A stretch of 64,000 nt of DNA, from positions 39,467 through 103,466 of the forward strand of contig CBDUVB010000002.1 of NCBI GenBank assembly GCA_965370555.1, given 5' to 3'. Each line of letters opens with the position of its first letter. Positions within the stretch are counted from its first letter, which is position 1. Under the pieces are notes generated by a model. It was not told where the DNA came from and did no database searches. It worked only from the letters and a program-made list of their open reading frames with translations. The position numbers and the translations under genes were made by a program. Source of the DNA: an uncultured bacterium. Lineage in GTDB: Bacteria > Bipolaricaulota > Bipolaricaulia > UBA7950 > UBA9294. Positions 243 to 15,860 of this stretch are shown piece after piece.

Positions 243-1643
243 ATGGCACACAGTAACATGACAAGAAATGACTGGCTTCGGTTTGGAACAGTCCTCCTCG
301 TTGCCCTCGGCTCGCTCGCTCTTCTCTACCCGTTCTGGCCATTGAAGGACGTTGTGAACCTCGGTCTCGATCTGCAGGGTGGGGTTAGGATGGTCCTTGA
401 GGCACAGGATGTAGAAGGGATGGATGAGGGTCAGAAGAGAGATACGCTCGATCGGGTCATTGCCATTCTCAATAACCGCGTTGACCAGTACGGCCTTTCC
501 AACGCCGAGATCAAACGGATGGGAACGTCGAGGGTCTTAGTGAACCTCCCTGGAACTAAGGATCCCGAGGAGGCTCGCAACCTGATCGGTCAGACTGCGA
601 TGCTCGAGTTTCGTAAGGTGGTTGAAGCGGGGACGAGCCCCAACTCCGACCTCGTTCCCACCTCTGCCACACAGGAGGTCCTGTACAATCGGGAGGGGAT
701 TCCCTACATCGTGGAATCAACGCCCTTGCTGACCGGAGCGGCCCTTGCCGACGCGAATGTGCGCACCTCTCAATCGATGCAGACTGCTGGAAAGCTCTTT
801 ATCTCTCTCTCGTTCAACCAGGAGGGGGCGCAGCAGTTTGTGGAGGCGCTTCGCCACCTGAAAGGGGACAACCCGGATACGCCGCAGAACGAAGGGGACC
901 TCCTGGCGATCGTGCTCGACCACGTCATCTATAGCGCGCCGCGGATCACCGATTCGATCAAGACGGCCGCTGCGCAGGGTTGGCGGTCGGTACAGAATTC
1001 GACCACCATCAGCGGACAGTTCACCAAGGAGGAGGCGACTCGGATCGCGATCGTCCTGCGTGCCGGTGCCCTCCCGGTTGCGGTGAAGGTTGTCGAAGAG
1101 AACACGGTCGGCCCGACATTGGGGAACGATTCGATCCGGCGCGGGATGATCACCATCGTGGCCGGGTTCATCATCATCCTCTTCTACATGCCGGTATACT
1201 ACCGTGCTCTAGGAATCGTCGCTGATGTCGCGCTTGTTCTCAACATGTTGATCATCTTCGGGGCGCTGGTCGTTTTCAGTGCGACCCTCACCCTCCCGGG
1301 GATTGCTGGTATCATCCTGACGATCGGTATGACGGTCGACGCCAACGTGATCATCTTCGAGCGGATCAAGGAAGAACGGCGTACCGGGAAGTCTCCACTC
1401 GCCTCGGTGCGAGCTGGGTTTGAGAAGTCACTCTCCACCCTGCTCGACGCGAACATCACGACGCTCCTCACCGCGCTTATCCTCCTTCTGATCGGGACCG
1501 GTCCGATCAAGGGGTTTGCGATCACGCTGGGGATCGGTGTGGTTGGTAGCCTGTACTGTGCCTTGGTTGCTAGCCGACTCCTCCTGGAGAGGGCCGGCTT
1601 TGCCGAGCATATTCCGGCGAAGGTGGTGCAGAGCGAGTCGTAA
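243..1643 (+). CDS. secD: Protein translocase subunit SecD
   Basis: 466 aa; N-terminal TM, periplasmic domain with LDLQGG motif, C-terminal 6-TM bundle; RBS GGAGGG 8 nt upstream; follows yajC. Confidence 0.9.
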   Translation: MAHSNMTRNDWLRFGTVLLVALGSLALLYPFWPLKDVVNLGLDLQGGVRMVLEAQDVEGMDEGQKRDTLDRVIAILNNRVDQYGLSNAEIKRMGTSRVLVNLPGTKDPEEARNLIGQTAMLEFRKVVEAGTSPNSDLVPTSATQEVLYNREGIPYIVESTPLLTGAALADANVRTSQSMQTAGKLFISLSFNQEGAQQFVEALRHLKGDNPDTPQNEGDLLAIVLDHVIYSAPRITDSIKTAAAQGWRSVQNSTTISGQFTKEEATRIAIVLRAGALPVAVKVVEENTVGPTLGNDSIRRGMITIVAGFIIILFYMPVYYRALGIVADVALVLNMLIIFGALVVFSATLTLPGIAGIILTIGMTVDANVIIFERIKEERRTGKSPLASVRAGFEKSLSTLLDANITTLLTALILLLIGTGPIKGFAITLGIGVVGSLYCALVASRLLLERAGFAEHIPAKVVQSES

Positions 1644-2562
1644 CGCTAAGGATCAGTTTAAGAAGCGCATCGGAAGGACGAATGCCGCCGCGCTTGACTT
1701 CGAGATCAAGGTTGATCCCCAAGTCGAGTGCGGCGGTTAGCCTTTGCGCCGAGTACCCCTTTGCCTGTGTCGCGAGCCGGCGGACGAGCCAGGATGGCGT
1801 TCCGAGCAGCGTCGACATCTTCGCCTCTGCGATCTTGGAATCGAGGAGGACCCGTACCATCAGGAGTTTCGTCAGGTGGCGTACGACCCCAGAGAAGACC
1901 CGCCCAGGGTCCTCGTGCAGGCGAGAGAGTGTTGCGAGGCTCTCGGGAAGGTTGTGGTCTCCAATGCGGTCGAGGAGAGGGTAGATCGATCCCTCCCCCG
2001 TAGAGAACCCTACTTTCTCGATCGCGACGCGATCGATCGTCCCTCCGGAAGAGAAGGAGCGAAGCTTTCGCGCCTCCTGAGAAAGAACGAGAAGGTCGCC
2101 ATTGCACCGTGCGATCAAGACCTTCAGCGCCTGCGGATCGAGATGAACTCCCTGCGCGACCATCACCTCAGAGGCCGTGCGTTCCAAGGCCTTTCCCTTG
2201 ACAGGAGGGAGGGCCTGCACTATTCCGCGTTTTCTGGCTGCCTTGACGAGCGGGCTCGTCCCCTTCAACCCCGGCGCGAGGAACGTGAGGTGCGTCTCTG
2301 AAGGGAGATCCCGTTCGATGAGGGCGGAGAAGGGCTTCGCCTTGATCGTCTCTGCATGACGGACGACGAAGTGACGGCTCTCAGCAAAGAGAGAAGCGGA
2401 CTGAAGCTCCACCATAAGGGCGGAAAGATCAAGCTCGTCGCCGAACAAGGTGTGTCGTTCGGCCTTTGCGTCCCCTTCGAGAATCCTCGTGTGGCGAGCC
2501 TGCAGGGCCTGCTCGCAGCGGAACGGATCGCCGAAGATCAGGGCTAATTGTGGTTCAGACAT
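1570..2562 (-). CDS. holA: DNA polymerase III delta subunit (HolA)
   Basis: 330 aa; N-terminal LIFGDP...LFGDELDL...SASLFAESRHFVV motif and overall length/fold signature of HolA; low-complexity C-terminal tail overlaps secD 3-prime end by 74 bp (convergent). Confidence 0.7.
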   Translation of the reverse strand: MSEPQLALIFGDPFRCEQALQARHTRILEGDAKAERHTLFGDELDLSALMVELQSASLFAESRHFVVRHAETIKAKPFSALIERDLPSETHLTFLAPGLKGTSPLVKAARKRGIVQALPPVKGKALERTASEVMVAQGVHLDPQALKVLIARCNGDLLVLSQEARKLRSFSSGGTIDRVAIEKVGFSTGEGSIYPLLDRIGDHNLPESLATLSRLHEDPGRVFSGVVRHLTKLLMVRVLLDSKIAEAKMSTLLGTPSWLVRRLATQAKGYSAQRLTAALDLGINLDLEVKRGGIRPSDALLKLILSVTTRSAPPSPEYARQSRPSPGGVG

Positions 2563-2578
2563 AGATCCTCGCTATCAG
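2384..2578. repeat. Copy 1 (native, intact) of the holA 5-prime direct repeat (att-like)
   Basis: Sequence gcaaagagagaagcggactgaagctccaccataagggcgg...gcagcggaacggatcgccgaagatcag recurs imperfectly at 5910-6074 and 9636-9753 in the same orientation. Confidence 0.8.
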
Positions 2579-2897: not shown

Positions 2898-4328
2898 TCA
2901 TTCTGGCAGAAGCCTCTTCACGAGGTCTACGCCCAGGTAGCTGTATATGCTATCCGGAGTTGACGCTTGTGCTGACCTCCGGAGGCCAGCAATCACGCTG
3001 CCGACCAAGACCTCCCACGGCTTGTTTGAGCCCGCCAGGCCAACGAGCAGATTCCTCATTCCTTTCAGATCGGCGTAGCGCCGATCAAATCCAGAATCAC
3101 GAAACGCAATTACCTCATCACGATACTCATGCTCAGCGGTCGATGCAAGCCACGATTGGAGTTGCTTCTCCAAAGTGGCCCACTCGGTACCCATCGCAGC
3201 TAGTACTTCGTCCGATACTATGAGATTCTCCGCAGCCCTGCAATTCAAGCGCAACCGCACAAGTGGGGGTAAATCCTCAAGGGGTTGTCCAGGTACGTTA
3301 TCTCCATCCCGGAGTGAGTATCCACGCGGGTCGTCGTATACGGCGCGCAGCAAACCGGCAGCCACTTTTTCAAACTCATTCATGCCACCAACACCGTTGA
3401 CCGCACGCGGAAACAACCTAAGGCGTCCATTGGATGACCTGACTGCCTGTTGCCATATGCGCTCATCGTCCACGCCCTCAACCAGGAGGATTGGGGACTC
3501 GTTGAACACTTGCGAAAGCGGATGCGCACCGAATACCGGCAATACACGTCGATGTACCTCGTTCAGCGGCACGAAGGACAGATCAACGTCATCAGACTTC
3601 ATGAAGGCAATATGTACTGATGACACATCGGCAAGCGCCGCCATTAAGGATGTGCTATGAGTCGCCAACAGAACCCGTAGATGACTTCCCGAAAGGTGCT
3701 TGACAACGAACTGCGCAAACCTGTGCTGTAGGTCAGGATGGAGATGGAGATCTGGCTCATCGACCAACAGTATGTTCACTTGACCTTGCGCTGCTTCCTT
3801 CTGGAACACCAGCACCTCGATCGCCAGCGAGATCAGCTCCGCCTCCCCACTGCTAATGTTCCGAGGTTCGATTCGCTGCTCGTTGCCGAGCCGTATCTCA
3901 AACGCTGACCCGGTAGGAGTGATCTGAATGTTGTCTAACAAGCTGTTGATGGATTCGATGACTAAATCGAAATGGTACGTACTGGCACGGATCTCCGGAT
4001 CGTTTTGGATTTGCCGAAGCGTTGTTATTTCTAGATTACGAAACAGCGCTACGCTCTGCTCGCGAAACTGGCTGAACTGATTCGATCGCCTCGTTTCCCG
4101 GAGCCAGGTTTGATTGGTGATGATATTGTTGTCAACGTTGGGCAGGTACTGAAGCATGCCACCTCTCTCTGGAGTGAGGTAGCGAACTGTGGCAATGGTT
4201 TCATCGGCACCGAGAGCCTCTTCGAGCGTCTTGAGTAAACGGCTCTTGCCGCACCCGTTCTTGCCAACAACGACGTTGATGCGTCCAAGATTGCGGAGGC
4301 TATAACCACCTTTATCAAGAAGATCCAT
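2898..4328 (-). CDS. OLD-family-like ATP-dependent endonuclease (AAA_21-type ABC ATPase fused to Toprim-like domain)
   Basis: 476 aa; Walker A VVGKNGCGKS, signature/Walker B LLVDEPDLHLHPD, H-loop LLATHS, then ILLVEGVDDERIW resembling the Toprim LVEGxxE motif of OLD/Gabija GajA/PARIS-type nucleases. Confidence 0.6.
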   Translation of the reverse strand: MDLLDKGGYSLRNLGRINVVVGKNGCGKSRLLKTLEEALGADETIATVRYLTPERGGMLQYLPNVDNNIITNQTWLRETRRSNQFSQFREQSVALFRNLEITTLRQIQNDPEIRASTYHFDLVIESINSLLDNIQITPTGSAFEIRLGNEQRIEPRNISSGEAELISLAIEVLVFQKEAAQGQVNILLVDEPDLHLHPDLQHRFAQFVVKHLSGSHLRVLLATHSTSLMAALADVSSVHIAFMKSDDVDLSFVPLNEVHRRVLPVFGAHPLSQVFNESPILLVEGVDDERIWQQAVRSSNGRLRLFPRAVNGVGGMNEFEKVAAGLLRAVYDDPRGYSLRDGDNVPGQPLEDLPPLVRLRLNCRAAENLIVSDEVLAAMGTEWATLEKQLQSWLASTAEHEYRDEVIAFRDSGFDRRYADLKGMRNLLVGLAGSNKPWEVLVGSVIAGLRRSAQASTPDSIYSYLGVDLVKRLLPE

Positions 4329-4416: not shown

Positions 4417-4716
4417 TTATCCATCCCTCTCAACCCAGTCTTGCAGCTTCCTCTCGGCTTCCCTTTTAGTGCTAACGTGAAACTTGGCAACAACGATATC
4501 CAACGCGTAGCGCGCGATTTCTTCCTCGCCTCGCATCTTCACTATCCACTTAGCAGGGCCGCTTGGCTCAGTTCTGACGGCGATTACTTCATCGTGGTCC
4601 TTGTCTGCTGTCACGCGTTCGGGATGTCCTTCTGGACCTTTAACCCAAATCTCCTCAAGAGATTCTCCGAGTCCCATGCCTACCTCCTTTCCGGTTGCTG
4701 TGCGACGCACTGCCAA
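4417..4716 (-). CDS. Hypothetical small protein (99 aa; possible internal start giving about 86 aa)
   Basis: ORF with protein-like composition between OLD-like gene and AbiEi-like gene; no recognisable motif. Confidence 0.3.
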   Translation of the reverse strand: MAVRRTATGKEVGMGLGESLEEIWVKGPEGHPERVTADKDHDEVIAVRTEPSGPAKWIVKMRGEEEIARYALDIVVAKFHVSTKREAERKLQDWVERDG

Positions 4717-4912
4717 CTATATCGTGTTGCGCCCGGGGGCGCCATACATAGAACCTTCACACGGCACTGACTTGCCCCACTTCGGCGGTCCACTTCTAAG
4801 GCATTGGGGTCTTGCAAAGCAAGACGTGCGGCTACCCTTTCCCTTCTTGGTTCGCCGGCTGATCTCAGGAAGGCAACGAAAGAGCAGTCGGACCTGGGTA
4901 TCATAGCGGGAG

Positions 4913-5704
4913 TCAAACACCAGGCAACTCCTCTCGCTTTGGCACGGTGATCTGGTACTTCGAGTCGAGCTGGCCTCCCTTGTAGAGTTGGCGTTTCCCC
5001 TTACCAAGATCGACTCGTGAGGGATCCATACGGCCAAACCAGGCATGCCCAACCGTCTCCGCGCTCCAAAGAAACAGCCGTTTGACCTTCACTGATCGGC
5101 AGTTCACCAAAAGGTCCTGTACTACATTCGGCCGTAGTGTGCTGAGTCCTTCCATCAGCTGATACGCTTGTTCGACGTCGTCATTCGTTCTGGCGAGACG
5201 CATCTGCTCCATAATAGCCCGTTCTGCACTCGATATGACGACTTCGAATCCACCGCAGTCCAGTTTAGCGGTGGCCTTGTCCGGAACGTGCTCAAGCAGG
5301 GACAGGCAACGGTGTTCCAGGTTGGCCTCCCACCGGTAATTCCTGAACCATGCTGGTAGCTGTTCCGGCTGGTCGCTTACCAGGATGACCTTCTTTTGCC
5401 GCCCAAGAGGAACGAAGTGGGATAGCCCCTGCAATTCCAATGCGCTACGTCCCCCAACATGCACGGTCATGCCGAGCTGGGTCTGCAGGGCATAGAGGCC
5501 TCCCCGCCAGTCAACCTGATCGCCCGGCTGGGTGAACGCCCTTGCGCCGAAGCGCACTAGCCATCCAGATCCCACATGCCAGTTCGCCAGCTTGCTGGAT
5601 ACCCCAAGCCGGTTAAGCCATGCCTGGGTCGCGACCGTTCCCTTCGGCCACTTCCGAAACACCTGGTTCATTTTTGATGGCTTCTTACTAGTCATCCTAG
5701 TCAT
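4913..5704 (-). CDS. AbiEi-family (type IV TA antitoxin-like) winged-helix domain protein, orphan
   Basis: 263 aa; N-terminal segment RLGVSSKLANWHVGSGWLVRFGARAF fits the AbiEi_4 wHTH pattern (LGVSR..L..LV..G.L.R..RGVY); no AbiEii nucleotidyltransferase partner adjacent. Confidence 0.45.
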   Translation of the reverse strand: MTRMTSKKPSKMNQVFRKWPKGTVATQAWLNRLGVSSKLANWHVGSGWLVRFGARAFTQPGDQVDWRGGLYALQTQLGMTVHVGGRSALELQGLSHFVPLGRQKKVILVSDQPEQLPAWFRNYRWEANLEHRCLSLLEHVPDKATAKLDCGGFEVVISSAERAIMEQMRLARTNDDVEQAYQLMEGLSTLRPNVVQDLLVNCRSVKVKRLFLWSAETVGHAWFGRMDPSRVDLGKGKRQLYKGGQLDSKYQITVPKREELPGV

Positions 5705-5909
5705 CCTCGTGTAAGTCTAAACCAATAATCAGTTCAGTTCGCTTTTCCAACCAATTATCTAGCACACCTGGTTGTTTGTCAACTGAAATAAACCATCCAA
5801 GAGCCTCTCCAACACACAGCGCCACACTCCGTCAGCAGGAACAGCAGGATGACCGGCATAGGCACTCGGACTAATAGCAACAAAGGTATAATAGGGCTGA
5901 CGGGAAAAG

Positions 5910-6074
5910 TAGCGACTCTCTGCAAAGAGAGAAGCGGACTGAAGCTCCACCATAAGGGCGGGAAGATCAAGCTCGTCGCAGAACAAGGTGTGCCGTTCGG
6001 TCTTTGGATCCCCGGTGAGAATCGCCGAAGATCAGGATAAGTGGCTGTTCAGGCATGGGTCCTCGCTGAGCAGT
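5910..6074. repeat. Copy 2 (partial) of the holA 5-prime direct repeat; includes holA start-codon context and has an internal deletion of about 40 bp
   Basis: Aligns to 2384-2578: gcaaagagagaagcggactgaagctccaccataagggcgggaagatcaagctcgtcgcagaacaaggtgtgccgttcgg...gaatcgccgaagatcagg...gttcaggcat; minus-strand ORF 5759..5986 translates FCDELDLPALMVELQSASLFAESR, the same as HolA residues about 38-61. Confidence 0.8.
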
Positions 6075-6207: not shown

Positions 6208-6930
6208 TCACTCTTCTGCTCCTTTTTTGCTGGAACCTGATCTTCTGATCCGATATGCAAGATACAATAACTGGGATAGCATTGCGACGGAGTCAGCGAT
6301 TAGCCTTACGTGTGAGCCTTCTTTCTCTTCCCATTTCACTGGGATTTCAAGAATGCGGTAGCCTCTTTCCTTTGCGCGATAGAGGATCTCGACATCCCAT
6401 ACATAGCCTGTTGTCACGGTCTGCTGGAGGAGTTCTCTCAGAATGCTTCTCCGAAATGCTTTGAAACCACATTGGGTGTCAGCAAAGTCCGTGGTTATCA
6501 ACAGTTTCCTCAGCAGAGTGAACGCCTCTCCAAGTAACGCTCTCAAAGGTGCTCTTTGAGTTCCCTTACTCCTGACTCCAATCACTATATCGTAAGATCC
6601 CGCCAGATGCTCCAGAAACGGCATGGCTGATTCTATTGGTACTGCCAAGTCAGCGTCTGTAAGCAAAACATTAGGATATCTCGCAGCAACAACGCCTCTA
6701 CAAATTGATAAACCTTTTCCCATCCGCAAATCGTTGACTACGAGAGTGCATTCCGGAAACATACTACGTACTGCGACAGATGTCGAATCTTGGCTGTTAT
6801 CGTCCACGATGATTATTTCGTATGGAACCCCAAAAGTCTTGAAGCAGTTAGAGATGTGCCGAATTGTTGTAGGTATCCGGTTGACTTCATTGTACACAGG
6901 GATTATAACGCTCGTGCTTGCTTCATTCAT
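6208..6930 (-). CDS. Family 2 glycosyltransferase (dolichyl-phosphate mannose/glucose synthase-like)
   Basis: 240 aa; SVIIPVYNE...IIIVDDNSQD...TDADL DXD-type GT2 motifs; 8-bp overlap with upstream membrane-protein gene (operon). Confidence 0.8.
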   Translation of the reverse strand: MNEASTSVIIPVYNEVNRIPTTIRHISNCFKTFGVPYEIIIVDDNSQDSTSVAVRSMFPECTLVVNDLRMGKGLSICRGVVAARYPNVLLTDADLAVPIESAMPFLEHLAGSYDIVIGVRSKGTQRAPLRALLGEAFTLLRKLLITTDFADTQCGFKAFRRSILRELLQQTVTTGYVWDVEILYRAKERGYRILEIPVKWEEKEGSHVRLIADSVAMLSQLLYLAYRIRRSGSSKKGAEE

Positions 6931-7582
6931 TCTTCATGAGTCTCCCGATCGCTGCAGATCGAGCTCGGAGACTACAGACAATCCATATGGCAAGGGGAAC
7001 CGTAGCAGCTGTCGTGATTACCCACACTATACCTATCGGTTTTCCGAAAAGGGTTGTGTTCGCCCATAGATTCGAGAGGATAGCTACCCAAGACAAAATT
7101 GCAGGAATGGATAGAACCACGTATCTACTACCTGCTAAGAACGAATCTCCCGGCCTGCGCATATTATCAACAACAAACCTCTCCCAGGAAAACGCTTTCC
7201 TTGCAGGACGGTTGGCGCATCTTACTCGGGGCGCCAGCTTCTCTTCTATGCACTGAGCTAAGCCTAAGATGTAAGCATCTTGACGGAAATAAACTAAAAC
7301 AAGGAACCAATAGACAGGGATGATTGCTAGTAAAACCCAGAGGAACGTCTCCGAAAGAGCCAGCAGCTCCAGTGCCCCTGATTCTCCTGGTGTGGACGAA
7401 CGAGCAGCCAGCACGCCCAAGAACCCGAGGAAACCTCCGAATAGCAGAATCGCAATATGTACGAAATTATGCTCGATTTGCATCCGCGTTACAATTTCTT
7501 GTCTCAGCGTTCTGTATTCCTCCAGGATCACTTCGAGTTCTTCCTTGACTTCAACTTCGTCTTCCTTAGGTTGCTTTTCCAC
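6923..7582 (-). CDS. Membrane protein with acidic coiled N-terminus and about 4 TM helices (partner of GT2)
   Basis: 219 aa; hydrophobic stretches IAILLFGGFLGFLGVLAA, FLWVLLAIIPVYWFLVLVYF, VVLSIPAILSWVAILSNLW, IVWVITTAATVPLAIWIV; translationally coupled to the GT2 gene. Confidence 0.5.
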   Translation of the reverse strand: MEKQPKEDEVEVKEELEVILEEYRTLRQEIVTRMQIEHNFVHIAILLFGGFLGFLGVLAARSSTPGESGALELLALSETFLWVLLAIIPVYWFLVLVYFRQDAYILGLAQCIEEKLAPRVRCANRPARKAFSWERFVVDNMRRPGDSFLAGSRYVVLSIPAILSWVAILSNLWANTTLFGKPIGIVWVITTAATVPLAIWIVCSLRARSAAIGRLMKNE

Positions 7583-7988
7583 CGCGGTTCCTCCTTACTT
7601 GGCGTACTCACCCATAAGAGTAATAAGATTTGACCTTTTAGCCAATCGTCCTTGGCTCTCTCGAACAACGCTTTAACCTCCCCCGCCGACACAGGTTGTC
7701 CTACGCCCCTATTCGAACCAATCACCTACTGCATAGCCGCGCGCAGAACTACCCCGGACCGCGAGTTACCGCAGTTGCTGACCATTGTACTTAGCAATCC
7801 TAGTTACGCGACCGAAGCTTCCTTTTGTTGTAACATCAGACGGTGGCGAAACCAACATAAGCATCTGCGTAACGCAATCAACATTGGGATTCCGGGGACA
7901 CAAACCATAGTTCCGTGAAGCGCTATGTGAATCGGAGTATGTGTCCCCCGATTCCCAGTATCCTCGCTATGCCCTCTTCCCCCTTGCG

Positions 7989-9287
7989 TCAGCCTTTGCC
8001 ATCACCTGCTGCTAGCCAGACCTCGACTTCCTCTGCAGTCACTGTCTCGAATGCGATCTGCTCTCCCTCGCTCTTGATGGGGGTCAGTGGATTCAAGACA
8101 AGGGGATTGAGAGCAGTTACATCTCCATTGAGTGCTCTAAGAATAGAGGTCGACAATCTGACGATGTTCTCTTCCTCATCCGCAATTACTAAGGGGAATA
8201 TGAGGCTGTCATTGCCAACGTCAACTTCGCCATCGGTCTTTGCGCGGTCCACATGCTTGGATACGAAGTCAGAGACGTTCGTCTGGAGATCCAGGCATAG
8301 GGTACGAAGTCTTTCGATGTGCGCCCGGAGTTGGAAGAGTCTGTTCGTGAATGGCGTGAATTCATATGACGCTTTGGTTATGTCGTATTTGAGGAAGCGG
8401 CCCGACGCCAGTGCTTGATCCAAGAAGCGAGTTGAAAGTTTCCGACCCCTGCTGGTCGTAATGGAGTACGCGACAAGCCATCGCAGATACTTGCCGCGCA
8501 TTCGGCTCCGGTCGCCAAGGCTGCCATCAAAGCAGCGACGTGCGTATGAAGCCCAAACATAGGCGGGCCTTATGCCATGCTTCCCTTTCTCCATGAGGAG
8601 CGCGCTGTTCTCGAGGATCTCACGCCGGAGGTTGGCCTTGAGTGCGGAGTCTACTAGCGTATCTGAGATACCAAGATGTACTCGGAGAACGTCGACGATG
8701 TCACGAAACGTCGTGAAACTGTGAATCCAGTTGGCTCCTGGAAAAGGGGATTGCCCCTCGACTGCCGCTTTCATCTCACTTTGCCGAGAAACCTCATCAA
8801 TGAATGACGAGATGGCTTCCACGTCGGTCATGAGAGGACTAGGATGGCTCGTGATACTACGTCTCTTGTTACAACTTAGACCAAGGTACGAACTCTCCAA
8901 CTCGAGGAACAAAGCCAGCGCTTTCCGATCTTCTCTGATCTTCCACAGCTCATCACGCAGGAATGCCAGAATGCACAGCCTGCCATTGCAGGCCAACTTG
9001 TACGCCTTACGATACTCCATGCGAGTAATGCTGATCCTATTTGGGATATCATAGAACGATCCAACACGTGATCCGATGAGAAGGATGTAGTAGTCAGCGC
9101 GCTCAATTGTTCGGAGACATGCTTCGTAGGTGTTCTTGTCGAGGGCTTTCGGGAAGTCGTTCTGCTCGGAGAGGAATACCTCATAGCCGAGTTTTTCAAG
9201 GTAGTATTTGATTGCGCTGCGAAGGTCACGGAAATCCTGGATCGTAGAAGACACGAAGACTGCAGGCCTCTTTCCCATCATAAGCAT
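7989..9287 (-). CDS. DUF4062-like N-terminal domain protein with uncharacterised 340-aa C-terminal region
   Basis: 432 aa; N-terminus PAVFVSSTIQDFRDLRSAIKYYLEKLGYEVFLSEQ...ADYYILLIGSRVGSFYD matches the DUF4062 (TIR-like fold) pattern (VFISSTxxDL...R......G..V); remainder has no recognisable motif. Confidence 0.55.
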   Translation of the reverse strand: MLMMGKRPAVFVSSTIQDFRDLRSAIKYYLEKLGYEVFLSEQNDFPKALDKNTYEACLRTIERADYYILLIGSRVGSFYDIPNRISITRMEYRKAYKLACNGRLCILAFLRDELWKIREDRKALALFLELESSYLGLSCNKRRSITSHPSPLMTDVEAISSFIDEVSRQSEMKAAVEGQSPFPGANWIHSFTTFRDIVDVLRVHLGISDTLVDSALKANLRREILENSALLMEKGKHGIRPAYVWASYARRCFDGSLGDRSRMRGKYLRWLVAYSITTSRGRKLSTRFLDQALASGRFLKYDITKASYEFTPFTNRLFQLRAHIERLRTLCLDLQTNVSDFVSKHVDRAKTDGEVDVGNDSLIFPLVIADEEENIVRLSTSILRALNGDVTALNPLVLNPLTPIKSEGEQIAFETVTAEEVEVWLAAGDGKG

Positions 9288-9635
9288 TACCCCATCCTAC
9301 AAGACACTAGAGTCTAGATCCTATTACGTGATGCTTGGACATGTAGAAGAAGCGAACCACAAATGACCAAGACAGGCTTCGGGCAGATCTTGGTTTTCGA
9401 CCTCGTCATGCATGACGATACGCCTGATTGTAGAATAGAGCACCTCTACGCACTTTCGCTAATTGGGGTATCCCGATCACCGTCTCACAGACCTTTCGAA
9501 TATTCAACGTATCCCCCCATGAACAAGTACGCACGTTAATAGATGAAAGGAGTGTACAGGTTAAAAGAGGGAACTGTCAAATCTTGTGAAGGGCGGAAAA
9601 TCTAAAGAACGCATCCTTGGCAAAACTATCTGTTT

Positions 9636-9753
9636 GGGAAGATCAAGCTCGTCGCCGAACAAGGTGTGTCGTTCGGCCTTTGCGTCCCCTTCGAGAATCC
9701 TCGTGTGGCGAGCCTGCAGGGCCTGCTCGCAGCGGAAGGGGTCGCCAAAAGGC
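9636..9753. repeat. Copy 3 (partial) of the holA 5-prime direct repeat
   Basis: About 105 bp near-identical to 2414-2523 (ggaagatcaagctcgtcgccgaacaaggtgtgtcgttcggcctttgcgtccccttcgagaatcctcgtgtggcgagcctgcagggcctgctcgcagcggaa), then decays. Confidence 0.8.
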
Positions 9754-9843
9754 CTGCAACTGAACTGCTGTTCATGCTCATCTTGCATGCAACAACCCTC
9801 TTCCTTGTTCTGCTGGATATTCGCGGCTAATCTCAATGACGAC

Positions 9844-10419
9844 ATGCCAGCAATCTCGCGAGTGTGCGATGAGATCATCTCCGTCATCAGCGATAGCCTA
9901 CAAGGTGAGAACCACACGTGTATCATCATCCACGGGGAAATTGGGGTAGGGAAGACACGTCTCGCGGAACAGCTTGCCGCGGCACTTATCGAACGCAGGA
10001 TCAAGACCGGAGGAGTTCTCTCTCCCCGGATTCTCGATGGGAATGAAACCATTGGCTACACGATTCACGATCTCTCAACAGGTGAGGAAGAGCCGTTCAT
10101 CAGGCTGACCCCACCAGGGATCCCGATTGGCAAATTCTATCTGATGGAAGATGGATTAGCATTTGCTCGTGCAGCGATCGAACACGCTACAAGAGCCATG
10201 CAAGTCGTATTCGTCGATGAGGTCGGTCGTCTCGAGTGCGATGGTAAAGGACACGCCCCGGCTGTGCGAACGCTATTACGCTCGCAAGCACTTCCGGTGC
10301 TCCTCGTTCGCTCCTCTTTTGTCGAGCGAGTGGTTGAGACCTTCGGGATCGCGCGCTATGAGCTCCTTTCCGTCGAATCAGGCCTCTCGGATTTCCTTCC
10401 GGAAGAAGGACGCCCATGA
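9844..10419 (+). CDS. P-loop NTPase, THEP1-like (COG1618)
   Basis: Walker A GEIGVGKT, KTGGVLSPRI...GYTIHDLSTGEE and Walker B VVFVDEVGRLE match nucleoside-triphosphatase THEP1 layout; start placed at ATG 9844 after the repeat (longer ORF 9586.. runs through the repeat and is rejected). Confidence 0.6.
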   Translation: MPAISRVCDEIISVISDSLQGENHTCIIIHGEIGVGKTRLAEQLAAALIERRIKTGGVLSPRILDGNETIGYTIHDLSTGEEEPFIRLTPPGIPIGKFYLMEDGLAFARAAIEHATRAMQVVFVDEVGRLECDGKGHAPAVRTLLRSQALPVLLVRSSFVERVVETFGIARYELLSVESGLSDFLPEEGRP

Positions 10420-10865: not shown

Positions 10866-13586
10866 TTATTTTGAAGACACGTCAAGAGTTGTCACTGGAA
10901 CGCCGGTAATCTCCTGTATGCGTTTGACAATCCAGCCATGACATGTAAACAGAAACACTTGGCGCTTCTGCGCAATCTGGGAAAGGATCTGTACCCCTGT
11001 CTCGAAACGTTGATCATCCCAGTTAATCAGTACTTCATCTAATACAAGCGGTAGATGTTCATATGCTTCGTCTAGGTGGTCAATCACGGCCAGTCTAAAC
11101 GCAAGGAAGATCTGATCAAGTGTCCCGCCACTTAACGGAAAAGCAATTGGACGATCTTCTCCTGATTTGCTGATCACTGCCAACCGTTCTTCTTCATCTT
11201 CCAGTGTGATGATGCGAGTGTAGCGCCCACTGGTTATCGTGTTTAAATACTCACCGGCCCGCTTCAGTACATCAGGTTGGTGTTCTTCACGAAACTGCCG
11301 ATCAGCTTCCCTTAGTAAAGAAGCAAGCAGCATCAAGCGGTCATGCCGAGTACACACGTCCTCTATCTGTTCCTCGATGCTTTCTATCTTGCCGTCGAAC
11401 TCGCCCACTGAAACATCTCCACGAGCATTATCTATCTCGTTTTGCAATCTGGTTCCTTCTTCTCGCAGACGCTGCAGCTCTCCATCCTTGTCTTGGAGTT
11501 TGTCCCGCCTGATACGTGACTTCTCCACTTCCTCCTGATCTAGGACCCAGGCATCTACGTTGCCTTCTTCTAGATGGTGAATCTCTTCTTGCAATTCAGG
11601 CAGATCTGGATGATCCATCTCTAGTTGTTCTTCGATGTTCTGAATCTTTCTCAGGATCCCTTGCAGTTCAGCGGCTCTTTTCAAGGTCTCATTCGGTGGC
11701 AAATTTTCCACCACGACTTGAGTGACATGCTTCATGAACTCATCACGTGCTCCCGTAGCATCCTGTAGGGCTTTCTTTACCTCCTCTAGTTTTCCATTCA
11801 TATCCTTAATATGCCTAGCAGCCTGGTTGAAGTCTCGCTGGTGATCCTTAGCCGTATCAAGGCGGTCTTCCAGACGATTTACTGCCTCTAGGCTCGCTTT
11901 CTGCTCTCCAAATTCTCCCACCAATTCTTGCAATTCGTGTTGAGCGGCCTCCCAGTTTTCTTGTTGCTCTTGGAGGTGATAAGTCTTTTGCTTCCTTTCG
12001 CCGACATATAACCGCAGGCCCTCTACCGCCTGGTAGAGGAAGAGGTCGGGTTTCTCGATCAAGGCTGCGGCAAGAGGTAGGTCTTTCAGGATCTCTTTTA
12101 CCTCCTCGCGTGCCTCGTTCCGTGCACCATCTGCTTCCCGCTTCTGTTTTTGCAGTCGCTCAATCTCGTCCTGGCGCTGAGCTTCCAGGAGGCTGCGCTG
12201 ATGTCGGATGAAGAAGTTAAACACCAAAGCCGTAATGCCGATCAGTGTCAGGGTAGATCCAGGTGTGATAGCGGCGTGGGAGAACCAGATCCCGAGCAAG
12301 ACTGCCAGGAGACCTACTGTGATAGCTCCCACTGTAGCCCAGCCGGGCAGTTCGCCGATCATCCGTACGGGAGCAACACTTTCGATTGCAGTTTGCCGCT
12401 GTTCGACTGCCTTCTCCTTCTCCTGGAAGTTGTTGGTTCTTGTCTTTAACTCAGGGAGTACTATCCCTTCAACGGTTAGAGAAAAATCATCACGCCAGGG
12501 CTCGGCAAGGATACTCGCAGCAGTCGATTCCAGAGATCGCTGGAGCTCATCCACATCACGCTCGATCTTCTCTATGTTATGTTGTTCCTGCTCATGAGCG
12601 GTCACACGATGTGCCCAACTATCAATCTTTTCTGCACGTTCCAGAATAGAGCGATCTTCCTCGATGAATCGTTCCTGAACATCAAGTTGTGTCTTCCCTT
12701 CTTCTTTCAGTCGTTTGATAGCTTGCTCTGCGTCTTCGACATGGTCGCACAAGTGCCTGTATTCAGTCTCCAAGCCATCTGGTAGGCGTTGGGTTGCCTC
12801 AATATCAGGGATATTAGAGTGCCACTTTCCAATCTTATCCAGCCACTTTTTTAGTGGAAGCAGCAGATCGGCCTTGCGTAACTGCGCACTCAGTTTGGCT
12901 AGCTCTTCTTCAAGAGTACTTATCAGTTTTTCGACTTCGTGAGTCCTTTTCGCTTTATTGCGTATGGCCTGATCTCTTTCCACGGTCTGCTTACGGTCTT
13001 TCCTAGCGTCCTTCAATTTGCCTCTAAGATCTACGTACAGGGGCTTCCCCCTCTTATCGTTCCGCCAAAGTTTTTGGGCCTGCTTCTCAAGGTCAGCGAT
13101 GACCTGCCGTGTCGGGTTGAGTAGCTCGGCACCAAGCCCACTAAGCAATAGGTCGTCGATCTGCTTTCTCTGTGCTTTCTCAAGCGAGCGCATGTTCGCC
13201 TGGGTGAGCGCGTATAGCGCTTTGTAGAGAGTCATACTCACATGCTGCACGAAGGGGAGGTCGTGGTTGGCTAGCTCCTGGGCGCGGTCATCGCGGATGA
13301 GACGCCCCTGGGGAGTACTTGTCAGCTTCCTCCATACCTCTGCCCGAGTGCCATCCTGAAGAGTTAGCACTGCTCGTAGTTCGGGGTATCTATCCACATG
13401 CCATGGGTGGTAGGGAAAATCCGACACGGGATAAAAACCGTACAAAAGGGTGGTCAGAAGGTTGAATAGCGTGGACTTCCCGGCTTCATTCAAGCCGTGG
13501 ACAATCACCAAGTTTTCGGATACGTTCGGAATGCTGCGGTCGACAAAACAACCAAATGAGCCGATCTCTAGCTTCTCAACTCTCAT
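10866..13586 (-). CDS. YhaN/SbcE-like AAA ATPase (SbcC-related, long coiled coil, internal 2-TM hairpin)
   Basis: 906 aa; N-terminal Walker A GLNEAGKST, extensive heptad-rich middle, hydrophobic hairpin WATVGAITVGLLAVLLGIWF...LTLIGITALVFNFFI, C-terminal Walker B PLVLDEVLINWDD. Confidence 0.75.
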   Translation of the reverse strand: MRVEKLEIGSFGCFVDRSIPNVSENLVIVHGLNEAGKSTLFNLLTTLLYGFYPVSDFPYHPWHVDRYPELRAVLTLQDGTRAEVWRKLTSTPQGRLIRDDRAQELANHDLPFVQHVSMTLYKALYALTQANMRSLEKAQRKQIDDLLLSGLGAELLNPTRQVIADLEKQAQKLWRNDKRGKPLYVDLRGKLKDARKDRKQTVERDQAIRNKAKRTHEVEKLISTLEEELAKLSAQLRKADLLLPLKKWLDKIGKWHSNIPDIEATQRLPDGLETEYRHLCDHVEDAEQAIKRLKEEGKTQLDVQERFIEEDRSILERAEKIDSWAHRVTAHEQEQHNIEKIERDVDELQRSLESTAASILAEPWRDDFSLTVEGIVLPELKTRTNNFQEKEKAVEQRQTAIESVAPVRMIGELPGWATVGAITVGLLAVLLGIWFSHAAITPGSTLTLIGITALVFNFFIRHQRSLLEAQRQDEIERLQKQKREADGARNEAREEVKEILKDLPLAAALIEKPDLFLYQAVEGLRLYVGERKQKTYHLQEQQENWEAAQHELQELVGEFGEQKASLEAVNRLEDRLDTAKDHQRDFNQAARHIKDMNGKLEEVKKALQDATGARDEFMKHVTQVVVENLPPNETLKRAAELQGILRKIQNIEEQLEMDHPDLPELQEEIHHLEEGNVDAWVLDQEEVEKSRIRRDKLQDKDGELQRLREEGTRLQNEIDNARGDVSVGEFDGKIESIEEQIEDVCTRHDRLMLLASLLREADRQFREEHQPDVLKRAGEYLNTITSGRYTRIITLEDEEERLAVISKSGEDRPIAFPLSGGTLDQIFLAFRLAVIDHLDEAYEHLPLVLDEVLINWDDQRFETGVQILSQIAQKRQVFLFTCHGWIVKRIQEITGVPVTTLDVSSK

Positions 13587-14824
13587 CGCTTCTGCTCCGG
13601 TACCAACCGGGATGCAGCCTCGCGACCCATATTATTTGCTAACCCCCGTAAGTAATGCCGCACGTCTTCGGTGTTCGAACGGGCCAAGTCCTTGGGGGTA
13701 ATGCAATCTAATAATTCGTCGTCCGTGGATAACCTCTCAAGCAACTCCAGGGCTTCGCCTAACACCGTTGGACTACCTACATAACTTTCCACGTCCACCG
13801 GTCGCACAAGAGAACGGGGCCGTATCTCAAGCCAGGTAATATTCGTTTCGTTCTGAACGATCTCCTCTAAATCTTGCAAACTTTCCGGTTTGTTTATTTC
13901 ATCAGCCAGGGAAGATTCCCCCGTTAGGGTGACACGCACTAAGTGCTCTCGACCGTCATCTAGATCTATCTTTTGGCGAAGGCGTGCCGCCAACTCTGCT
14001 GTTAACTCGGCATCTGTGCATGCGTTCTCAGGGCATGCGAGTTCAACGTGATCCCATACGAGAGGTGAAAGGGGTATGAACTCTGGCTCAATCACGTCCC
14101 TCTTCGATACTTCCACGTAGAGCGCGCCTTTGACACCAGTCTCTCTAGGGTTTCGGCCCTGTATATTGCCGGGGTACCAAGCCGGTAGACTATCAGATAT
14201 CCGTTGGCGTACGTGAATATGCCCTAGCGCCCAGTAATCATAGCCTGGTAATTCAAGATCTTTTTCGGTACATGGAGCATAGCGCTCATGTTGATCTGCG
14301 CTCCTCGCATTGACAACTTGTGTGTGGAGCATTGCCACATGTGGTAAATCATCTTTGGCTTTTTTGTACCGAGTAGCCAAATTGCTACCTTCGCGCGTTG
14401 AGCTGTGTCCAGCAGCAGTTAACCACCCTATCTGCTGTCCTTTACGGTCAACGATTGGGACGGTTTCAGGAGTAGTACTGGTGAATAGATGCACATTACT
14501 CGGCCATTCGAGTTTCTGTGCACGGTAGTTCGCACGGCCGGGATCATGGTTCCCAGTTGCGTAGAAAACTGGGATTCGCGCATTCTGCAGTTTGCACATC
14601 TCAGTCAAGAGAAACCTCTCCGTCGTAAACGACAGTAACTCATTGTCAAACAAATCACCCGCTATGAGAAACGCATGAACATCTCGTTCGATAGCTGCAT
14701 CCACCGCTCCTTTGAACGCCTCTCGACAGGCATTCCGCAATTTTCGGCGCAATAATTCATCACGTCCGTAAAAAGGGGTATCTAGATGAACGTCAGCAAT
14801 ATGCAAAAGGCGTAACGCTTCCAC
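13583..14824 (-). CDS. YhaO/SbcF-like calcineurin-type metallophosphoesterase (SbcD-related nuclease)
   Basis: 413 aa; LHIADVHLD...FLIAGDLFD...ATGNHD...GHIH phosphoesterase motifs; 4-bp overlap with YhaN-like gene. Confidence 0.8.
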   Translation of the reverse strand: MEALRLLHIADVHLDTPFYGRDELLRRKLRNACREAFKGAVDAAIERDVHAFLIAGDLFDNELLSFTTERFLLTEMCKLQNARIPVFYATGNHDPGRANYRAQKLEWPSNVHLFTSTTPETVPIVDRKGQQIGWLTAAGHSSTREGSNLATRYKKAKDDLPHVAMLHTQVVNARSADQHERYAPCTEKDLELPGYDYWALGHIHVRQRISDSLPAWYPGNIQGRNPRETGVKGALYVEVSKRDVIEPEFIPLSPLVWDHVELACPENACTDAELTAELAARLRQKIDLDDGREHLVRVTLTGESSLADEINKPESLQDLEEIVQNETNITWLEIRPRSLVRPVDVESYVGSPTVLGEALELLERLSTDDELLDCITPKDLARSNTEDVRHYLRGLANNMGREAASRLVPEQKR

Positions 14825-14939: not shown

Positions 14940-15443
14940 ATGGAGCTTTCCCGCAAAGCTTACTGGGATCAGTTCCCACGAACCCCGGAGATGGTCATCA
15001 TGTTCGTTCCAAGTGAAGCCAGTCTCTCCGCCGCCTTTGAGCAGGATCCGGATCTATTGGAGTTCGGCGTGGGTAAACGTGTCCTGATTACTACACCCCT
15101 CATCCTGCTCGCCCTACTGCGCGCTGTGGCTTACGGTTGGCAGCAGCAGCAGATCGCGGAGAACGCCCGTGAGATCGCAGCGCAGGGTAAGGACTTATAC
15201 GATCGAGTGATCCGATTCCTCGAACTATTCCAGAGGACGGGCAAAGGCTTAGGCCAGGCGGTCGAGGCGTACGACAGCGCGATCGGATCACTAGAAAGGA
15301 GACTCCTTCCTTCAGCTAGGCGATTCAAAGAACTGAACGCATCAACCAAAGATCTCCCCGAGCTAACGCCAGTGAACCGTCAGCCCCGCCCACTCTCCTC
15401 CCCTGAGTCCTCCGAGACGGATGTCTCCGAGGCGGTGGAATAG
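14940..15443 (+). pseudogene. rmuC: DNA recombination protein RmuC, C-terminal fragment only (5-prime truncated)
   Basis: 167 aa matching the RmuC C-terminal domain (MVIMFVPSEASLSAAFEQDPDLLEFGVGKRVLITTPLILLALLRAVAYGWQQ); the N-terminal two-thirds of a normal 450-aa RmuC is absent, and the yhaO-like gene start lies 116 bp upstream on the other strand. Confidence 0.6.
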
Positions 15444-15639
15444 GTTTTCACCGAACGGAAAAGGAGGCCAAAAAGAGGCCCCCTTTTCGCTACTACCGGT
15501 AGTAGAAAGGCGGTCTACGCGATAGCGGAGATAACAATAAGCGTATGCCTACCTATCACGCGACCGTCGTTGTCCCTGAAGGAATGGACTTCAGTCACCC
15601 TCGGCGGTTAGAACCCGTACTGTTTGGCCTCTTGTCGCC

Positions 15640-15860
15640 TTTGGGAGAGGCACAGGCATTTCTCTCGCCCGTTCGTTGTACTCACTCAAGCCGCCAAGAT
15701 CGCCAAGAAGAGCCAGTTTTATGTCTACTGCCTGTAGTTCTTTCCTTTCTTCTTGCTGTTCTCTGCGCCTTTGCGTCTTTGCGAGAGGCACAGGCTTTTT
15801 CTCTCGCCCGTTCGTTGTGCTCACTCAAGCCACAAAGGTGTCGCGACACCAAGATCGCCA
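15640..15860 (-). repeat. Two tandem copies of an 85-bp hairpin-containing intergenic repeat (same family as 35150-35345, opposite orientation)
   Basis: ttgggagaggcacaggcatttctctcgcccgttcgttgtactcactcaagcc at 15646-15700 and ttgcgagaggcacaggctttttctctcgcccgttcgttgtgctcactcaagcc at 15784-15845; reverse complement matches ggcttgagtgagtgtaacgaacgggcgagagaaaaggc...ctctcgcaaagacgcagag at 35260-35330. Confidence 0.75.

Follow-up and report, generated by a model that had tools for sequence, protein, structure and literature searches.

Organization of the locus

A complete gene encoding an ABC-type ATPase fused to a Toprim-like C-terminal half (the ATPase-Toprim gene) was identified in a 64,000-nucleotide (nt) stretch of contig CBDUVB010000002.1 from an uncultured member of the Bipolaricaulota. 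The whole stretch is referred to here as the window, and all coordinates are positions within it unless labelled otherwise. The gene lies in an insert of ~3.3 kb that is delimited by copies of the 5' end of holA and that also contains a gene for an AbiEi_3 protein and an orphan open reading frame (ORF), all on the minus strand (Table 1). The original prediction, made from the sequence, described the gene as a compact OLD-family ATPase/Toprim nuclease-like gene and a candidate for anti-phage defence.

Table 1. Features of the holA-bounded island and its borders (aa, amino acids)
Feature	Position	Strand	Basis and remarks
holA 5' end and start region, repeat copy 1	~2370..2573
ATPase-Toprim gene, complete	2898..4328	minus	ORF listing; 476 aa, ATG start
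C-terminal helical bundle, residues 373-476	2901..3212	minus	R416, K422, R425, W438 and E439 invariant
Toprim core, residues 279-372	3213..3494	minus	Candidate metal residues E284, D288, D341, D343 and E367
Linker, residues 256-278, with FGAHPLS motif	3495..3563	minus	Homologue alignment
ABC-type ATPase head, residues 1-255	3564..4328	minus	Pfam, PDB profile search, Foldseek, motifs
Orphan small ORF	4417..4716	minus	99 aa from TTG, or 86 aa from ATG at 4677
abiEii toxin gene remnant	4810..4920	minus	tblastn; approximately the first 40 codons
AbiEi_3 antitoxin/regulator gene	4913..5704	minus	260-263 aa; Pfam AbiEi_3 1.6e-45 and AbiEi_3_N; PADLOC AbiEi 3.5e-82
Promoter-like site, TTGACA, 17 nt, GATAAT	5754..5782	minus	Consensus scan, upstream of abiEi; 11/12 matches
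Displaced holA 5' fragment, repeat copy 2, far boundary of the 3.3-kb island	5905..6067
Third holA 5' fragment	9636..9749

ATPase module and conserved motifs

The ATPase head retains every catalytic motif intact. Walker A is GKNGCGKS (residues 22-29, including K28), the ABC signature is SSGE (S159-E162), Walker B and the D-loop are LLVDEPDLHLHP (residues 187-198, with D190 and E191 in Walker B) and the H-loop is LLATHS (residues 220-225, with the histidine H224). The motifs quoted in the original prediction (Walker A, DEPDLHLHP, LLATHS and LVEGxDDE) are therefore all present in the 476-aa ORF, the last as LLVEGVDDE at residues 281-289. Their conservation was read from an alignment of 37 full-length homologues with 46-62% identity to the window protein. 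The ATPase motifs are invariant or nearly so in this alignment. In the C-terminal half, D287, D288, R340, D341, D343, E367 and N368 are invariant, and position 284 is occupied by E in 35 of the 37 proteins and by D in the other two. Since such motifs persist across homologues of only this identity, their presence is far beyond chance. The linker residues F266, A268, H269, P270, L271 and S272 are likewise invariant (37/37), and the linker is of low confidence in both structure models described below. Two homologues (P0087 and P0109) carry S in place of the Walker B residue E191 together with D in place of E284; neither change occurs in the other 35.

Residues ~16-237 match the Pfam families AAA_21 (2.5e-17) and AAA_15 (5.7e-15). 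The helical insert between Walker A and the signature comprises only ~95 residues, and all of the helices between residues 63 and 128 are short in the model of the full protein. For this module, a profile search of the PDB returned the retron IA ATPase, AriA, PtuA, OLD and GajA, and Foldseek returned the same ATPases with the full-length model.

Structure and affinities of the C-terminal half

Two models that include the C-terminal half were obtained. The first, a full-length AlphaFold model, is poor exactly at residues 268-307, where the first Toprim helix is mis-built, and a fold search with it returned ATPase matches only. The second covers residues 252-476, was built from 120 sequences and has a mean predicted local distance difference test score (pLDDT) of 92.7 and a predicted template modelling score (pTM) of 0.89. 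Its topology is strand-helix-strand-helix-strand-strand, followed by a helical bundle. The only significant Foldseek matches of this model in the PDB are the C-terminal region of Xanthomonas OLD (E 5.6e-4) and AriB of the PARIS system (E 2e-3). In the structural comparison, AriB surpassed every OLD protein in both the number of aligned residues and the Z score.

The metal-binding residues of AriB are E26, D30, D88, E90 and E122 (PMC11464382). The residues E284, D288, D341, D343 and E367 of the window protein are conserved at nearly the spacing of this site, a correspondence drawn from the spacing and not from a superposition. The Toprim assignment proposed in the original prediction is supported by this model and by the conserved residues, with AriB as the nearest solved relative, and the domain is divergent.

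Profile searches with PADLOC point in the same direction. The fused AriAB model (PDLC02981) is the top PADLOC match for the window protein and for four of the five other homologues tested. The window protein scores 78.3 bits, four homologues score 78-87 bits and an Escherichia coli homologue scores 51 bits, all with partial coverage of the profile. In those four homologues and the E. coli homologue, the AriAB alignment is one unbroken stretch that begins in the ATPase, spans the Toprim core and ends at residues 373-382. The window protein matches the PADLOC AriA models with E 2.5e-19 and 8.3e-18, and of all PADLOC models only AriB reaches the isolated C-terminal half, with E 0.049 and an alignment of 44 residues. 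When the family profile was compared with a GajA-like protein (96.6% probability), LLVEG was placed on the first strand of the OLD-like_TOPRIM domain of that protein; against the PDB, the alignment of the family profile with GajA stops at residue 291.

No match to the C-terminal half was found in PHROGs, and a phmmer search of PDB sequences returned noise only. Among 1.84 billion representative proteins, phmmer with the C-terminal half yielded 297 matches at E <=0.001 and 114 at E <=1e-30, and most of the best 150 share an architecture of ~480 aa. Because the matches are few and the best 150 are all of the family's own type, the family is discrete and lacks a simple sequence bridge to DUF4435. 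The C-terminal domain also occurs in three large proteins of 877-1,153 aa (P0274, P0341 and P0355). The ATPase insert is much longer in two of these, and the N-terminal part of one weakly matches RickCE/Ulp1-type cysteine proteases.

Distribution and genomic contexts of the family

More than 1,200 homologues were found in the database search, and the best 120 are full-length proteins of ~446-540 aa, nearly all of them ~470-500 aa long. They originate from Desulfomonilaceae, Actinomycetota, Gemmatimonadota, Halomonas, Microbulbifer, Flavobacteriaceae and others, and the source names of the best 120 are 'AAA family ATPase' or 'ATP-dependent nuclease' and nothing more specific. The family forms ~300 clusters at 50% identity across many phyla. 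A 97%-identical copy of the window protein is present in three independent metagenome contigs. No family member was found in a phage collection, which gave just two weak partial ATPase matches, and the sole full-length match in a plasmid collection is an E. coli chromosome filed as a plasmid.

The flanking ORFs of 14 diverse family loci were compared by all-against-all BLASTP, and no shared neighbour and no conserved synteny were found; no conserved partner was apparent in seven further homologue contexts. Two loci have in common a spacing of 149 nt between the family gene and an upstream gene of ~298 aa, but this was dismissed, as the upstream proteins are unrelated. Pfam and PADLOC searches of 73 neighbours in the 14 loci identified two integrases, two T5orf172 proteins, DpdE/DpdJ, a ZorD-like helicase, Abi_alpha and three PADLOC candidate families, mixed with housekeeping genes. 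The Halomonas homologue (locus L028) has an ApeA HEPN protein and a TIR protein in its vicinity, as well as a Gabija pair, which is a separate system at ~4 kb from the family gene. The Microbulbifer homologue is located within a P2-like prophage, where it adjoins the ogr/delta and portal genes and is accompanied by SIR2 and PIN genes. Another homologue is carried by a conjugative element with a coupling protein and a relaxase, and others adjoin transposases of the IS110 or IS240 type.

The E. coli homologue (WP_000868467.1; 489 aa, 36% identity) is annotated as 'AAA family ATPase' and was found in 28 of 5,426 complete E. coli genomes. In strain UPEC132 it is a solitary gene located between yfgI and guaA, with a transposase remnant and a response-regulator gene next to it (L037, 11965-13434). 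The patchy, mobile and partner-less pattern of the family fits a single-gene defence element, one of the alternatives offered in the original prediction, and speaks against a housekeeping role. This widespread family of mobile genes that have no partner is probably an anti-phage system.

Two split forms of the gene were also observed. In a Solirubrobacterales locus (L013, 4757-7101) the segments encoding residues 4-101 and 112-475 lie ~1 kb apart, as the result of an insertion or in a pseudogene. In L053 (173-1640) the ATPase and Toprim halves are separate ORFs of 240 aa and 255 aa, respectively, with an overlap of 23 nt, which represents either a frameshifted copy or a true two-gene form mirroring AriA/AriB.

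Neighbouring small ORF and abiE remnant

The small ORF upstream of the ATPase-Toprim gene is more likely to be the 86-aa form that starts at ATG. It has no Pfam, PADLOC or NCBIfam match and only marginal PHROG matches, and a search of 5.8 billion sequences gave a single relative, an 86-aa protein with 99% identity that is encoded in copies of the same island. Neither the small ORF nor AbiEi_3 was found by tblastn in the 14 diverse family loci. The suggestion that the 99-aa ORF forms a new pair with the ATPase-Toprim gene was rejected, since its relatives occur only in near-identical island copies and in none of the 14 loci.

The original prediction noted neither the identity of the upstream AbiEi_3 gene nor the truncated abiEii between it and the small ORF. 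The closest relatives of the AbiEi_3 protein are 91% and 70% identical to it and are followed by an AbiEii gene (PF08843) with an overlap of 8 nt. The AbiEii protein is intact (303 aa) in the loci of the 91% relatives (L043 and L044) and split into two ORFs in those of the 70% relatives (L045-L049). In the window, tblastn with the 303-aa AbiEii of L043 matched only its residues 1-39, and DNA homology to the intact abiE cassette stops at ~4854. The lost toxin has therefore been replaced in its position by the orphan ORF and the ATPase-Toprim gene. The abiE cassette is decaying: AbiEi_3 is intact, and abiEii is cut at the junction with the DNA of the orphan ORF and the ATPase-Toprim gene. In a sister island, represented by three contigs (L025-L027) with ~92% DNA identity, a 1-nt insertion splits abiEi into pieces of 61 aa and 185 aa, yet the ATPase-Toprim gene is intact, with 97% protein identity.

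Expression of all the genes in the string could be driven from the promoter-like site that precedes abiEi, and read-through from there is possible. Promoter-like sites in the consensus scan were not more numerous than in shuffled sequence, and the site is to be taken as a lead only.

The holA-bounded island and adjacent genes

The holA gene (1570-2562, minus strand) was identified by its DNA_pol3_delta_C domain. Three copies of its 5' end delimit two adjacent inserts, of which the first is the island described above. The original prediction regarded this island as att-bounded. Its boundaries are real and are formed by the holA 5'-end repeats; no integrase was found in the 3.3-kb segment or within 22 kb. 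The island contains no helicase, HNH nuclease or reverse transcriptase gene, in agreement with the prediction that a UvrD helicase and an HNH partner are missing. In the unrelated contig L043, the intact abiE cassette is flanked by 53-nt direct repeats derived from holA (4728-4780 and 6956-7008 of that contig). As holA-derived repeats surround the abiE cassette of an unrelated contig, the holA 5' end looks like a recurrent site of insertion, and the repeats suggest either such a site or a small mobile cassette.

In the second insert (6208-9287, minus strand), positions 6208-6930 encode a family 2 glycosyltransferase, and the 219-aa ORF at 6923-7582 matches no family. The 432-aa protein encoded at 7989-9287 has a DUF4062 domain at its N terminus and matches TIR_2 weakly. 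The proteins of this insert had no match in PADLOC. The DUF4062 protein could be another defence candidate. An NTPase_1 ORF (9586-10419, plus strand) overlaps the third holA fragment on the opposite strand with its N-terminal 100 residues, and its true start is probably further downstream. The region 10866-14824 (minus strand) encodes a 906-aa AAA_27/SMC-like ATPase with a weak LmuB match, directly downstream of a 413-aa metallophosphoesterase with an overlap of 4 nt; these proteins look like an SbcCD or YhaN/YhaO-like pair. A 167-aa ORF within 14940-15837 looks truncated, as its match to RmuC is confined to the C-terminal half of the profile (positions 156-289 of 291). Two direct-repeat pairs (15631-15698 and 15769-15837) are located downstream of it, ~139 nt apart.

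Assignment and alternative explanations

The ATPase-Toprim protein is likely to be a single-chain, self-contained immune nuclease of the OLD/PARIS group, carried as mobile cargo at the holA 5' end. The ATPase profiles, the conserved motifs and the confident C-terminal model, whose structural neighbours are AriB and OLD only, bear out the predicted architecture. Several observations weigh against this assignment. The Pfam search of the C-terminal half gave no match to DUF4435 (PF14491) or OLD-like_TOPRIM (PF20469) at E up to 10. Both are also missing from the precomputed Pfam lists of the 120 listed homologues, whereas genuine GajA-type proteins do match OLD-like_TOPRIM. The Foldseek template modelling (TM) scores of the C-terminal model are low (0.28-0.38), and the full-length model, with its low confidence at residues 268-307, gives no reliable interface between the domains. 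The AriAB score is low as well (78 bits), and the best stretch of the window protein covers profile positions 294-449 of 694. Several homologues lie among ordinary metabolic genes, and a literature search by the accession WP_000868467.1 found no mention of it. The putative substrate, trigger and oligomeric state are drawn solely from analogy with related systems.

The protein might instead act as the toxin in a type IV toxin-antitoxin or abortive-infection module that has been rebuilt, in which AbiEii was swapped out and AbiEi_3 serves as the antitoxin or repressor of the nuclease. The head-to-tail order of AbiEi_3, the small ORF and the ATPase-Toprim gene on one strand would agree with such a swap, as would the position of the only strong promoter-like site, upstream of abiEi, the cut of abiEii after ~40 codons exactly at the start of the new DNA, the Pfam description of AAA_21 as a putative AbiEii toxin and the retention of the arrangement in relatives that differ by ~8% in DNA. 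It is nevertheless improbable. AbiEi_3 relatives are missing from the 14 diverse loci, no AbiEi family is listed in seven other Pfam-annotated contexts, and in close AbiEi_3 relatives the usual partner is the AbiEii nucleotidyltransferase. Loss of an antitoxin that is essential would not be expected, yet abiEi is split in the three sister-island contigs beside an intact nuclease gene, which speaks against AbiEi_3 as an antitoxin that is needed to tolerate the nuclease. Pairing with AbiEi_3 was considered unlikely on the same grounds. A class 1 OLD nuclease in the classical sense, comparable to P2 Old or Thermus OLD and acting as a DNA nickase or exonuclease and not in the manner of PARIS, has a somewhat better claim, and the stand-alone gene would suit it, but it too is unlikely. 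The protein has 476 aa, as against 528 aa in Thermus OLD, and is thus shorter than class 1 proteins, as predicted; it lacks the large dimerisation insert, its Toprim half does not match OLD-like_TOPRIM, PADLOC ranks AriAB above Old, and AriB is the better structural match. The contrast is perhaps partly moot, as P2 OLD itself has been reported to be a tRNase (preprint 10.64898/2026.07.10.737580).

A role outside defence, either in chromosome or cell-cycle maintenance like archaeal Cran1 or in repair of the RecF/SbcC type, is very improbable. Some homologues are flanked by metabolic genes only, an archaeal OLD-family ATPase with a role in the cell cycle exists (PMC12796447), and weak SMC_N matches occur; that of the window protein scores 30.4, below the Pfam cut-off of 40. 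Against such a role, the gene is rare in E. coli genomes, shows no conserved synteny, and is carried on islands, a prophage, a conjugative element and segments flanked by insertion sequences, and in the window it lies inside a repeat-bounded insertion. Placement in a housekeeping ABC family with no Toprim domain and no link to defence islands, which the original prediction had set as the outcome that would speak against it, is contradicted by the Toprim model and by the homologues beside Gabija, ApeA and TIR genes, in the prophage and in the conjugative element.

Possible mechanism and significance

ABC heads dimerise around ATP. By analogy with PARIS and P2 OLD, the ATPase-Toprim protein, read as a self-contained immune nuclease, may form an ATP-sandwich dimer or a higher oligomer that is auto-inhibited, with the Toprim site kept closed. 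In PARIS, the ATPase keeps AriB inactive until a phage protein binds, and AriB dimers then cut tRNA (PMC11464382, PMC12409363). In P2 OLD, a closed tetramer opens into tRNA-cutting dimers (preprint 10.64898/2026.07.10.737580). The ATPase module of the window protein would sense a cue from the phage, which could be a protein or an aberrant nucleic acid, and an ATP-dependent rearrangement would then expose and pair the Toprim domains. The resulting two-metal nuclease may cut host tRNA, like AriB and P2 OLD; tRNA is the leading candidate for the substrate, though held at less than even confidence. DNA, which would be nicked as by GajA and class 1 OLD proteins, is a less likely alternative. Cutting of either substrate would abort phage production.

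Given the fusion of the two modules and the absence of long arms from the ATPase, activation would have to occur within the chain or the oligomer and not, as in two-gene PARIS, by release of the nuclease. With an ATPase module of ~255 residues and an insert of ~95 residues, trigger-binding pores of the AriA type cannot form in the same way. It is conceivable, if doubtful, that the family represents a distinct minimal lineage of the OLD/PARIS group, an autonomous sensor-effector of ~476 aa that has no long arms, has a Toprim domain outside the Pfam models and is unlocked within the chain or oligomer. Unlocking of this kind would differ from both the release of AriB in two-gene PARIS and the tetramer-to-dimer switch of P2 OLD, and one small gene would then be sufficient for defence.

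If active alone, the protein would be among the smallest immune proteins composed of an ABC ATPase and a Toprim domain, and a simple model of an ATPase sensor that gates a fused nuclease without long arms. Broad defence by a stand-alone OLD-type protein was listed as an open question in a review of the OLD family (PMC10568477), and a class 1 OLD example from Vibrio has since been reported (PMC12392090). As the nuclease half is invisible to Pfam, domain-based censuses may miss the family or label its members only as AAA family ATPases. The E. coli homologue WP_000868467.1 is a convenient natural test case. The island itself shows an abortive-infection cassette, abiE, overwritten by another effector at what appears to be a recurrent insertion site.

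Comparison with known systems

Single-gene PARIS fusions have already been described (PMC9122126, PMC11464382), and stand-alone OLD proteins are also known (PMC10568477, PMC12392090). The DUF4435 (PF14491) Toprim domain is the detection criterion for PARIS (Rousset et al. 2022, PMC9122126), and the published cut-offs of the fused profiles are 20 bits for AAA_21+DUF4435 and 80 bits for AAA_15+DUF4435 (PMC9122126). The permissive 20-bit cut-off in DefenseFinder may already sweep the family into 'PARIS merge'.

The fused AriAB form of PARIS and the window protein both consist of one chain in which an AAA_21/AAA_15 ABC ATPase is followed by a Toprim nuclease. They are further linked by AriAB as the top PADLOC model, by AriB as the top structural match of the C-terminal half and by the acidic pentad at nearly the AriB spacing. 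Carriage by mobile elements is also shared, including a P2-like prophage in the case of the ATPase-Toprim family. The two differ in size, as the window protein has 476 aa and the AriAB profile 694 positions. AriA has 464 residues, whereas the ATPase module has ~255, and the C-terminal half of the module aligns to AriA 313-449. The window protein lacks the long helical arms from which the AriA hexamer and its trigger-binding pores are built, DUF4435 is unmatched, and with the two modules fused the nuclease cannot be activated by being released.

Class 1 OLD proteins (P2 Old and Thermus scotoductus OLD, PDB 6P74) are likewise encoded by a stand-alone gene with no helicase, retron or separate nuclease partner. 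The window protein is ~50-110 residues shorter than these proteins and does not match OLD-like_TOPRIM, and the bundle that follows its Toprim core resembles AriB more than OLD. Gabija GajA, a class 2 OLD protein, aligns with the window protein over the ATPase and the first Toprim strand, and BLAST-level similarity to plasmid-borne GajA proteins reaches residue 372; in contrast to Gabija, no UvrD/PcrA-type helicase is present in the island or next to the gene in any family locus. Septu and retron systems differ in that no HNH PtuB or reverse transcriptase is found nearby and that the similarity to PtuA is confined to the ATPase module. The AbiE system is represented by a genuine AbiEi_3 in the neighbouring gene, but AbiEii is reduced to ~40 codons, and the ATPase-Toprim protein is unrelated to the AbiEii nucleotidyltransferase.

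As DUF4435, OLD-like_TOPRIM, the AriA arms and the GajB helicase are all lacking, the protein is best described as a compact variant that would work like fused PARIS or OLD and not as a proven PARIS system. By its stand-alone context it belongs with class 1 OLD, whereas by fold and profile it is closest to fused PARIS. The find is solid, but it exemplifies a theme already known and its novelty is modest.

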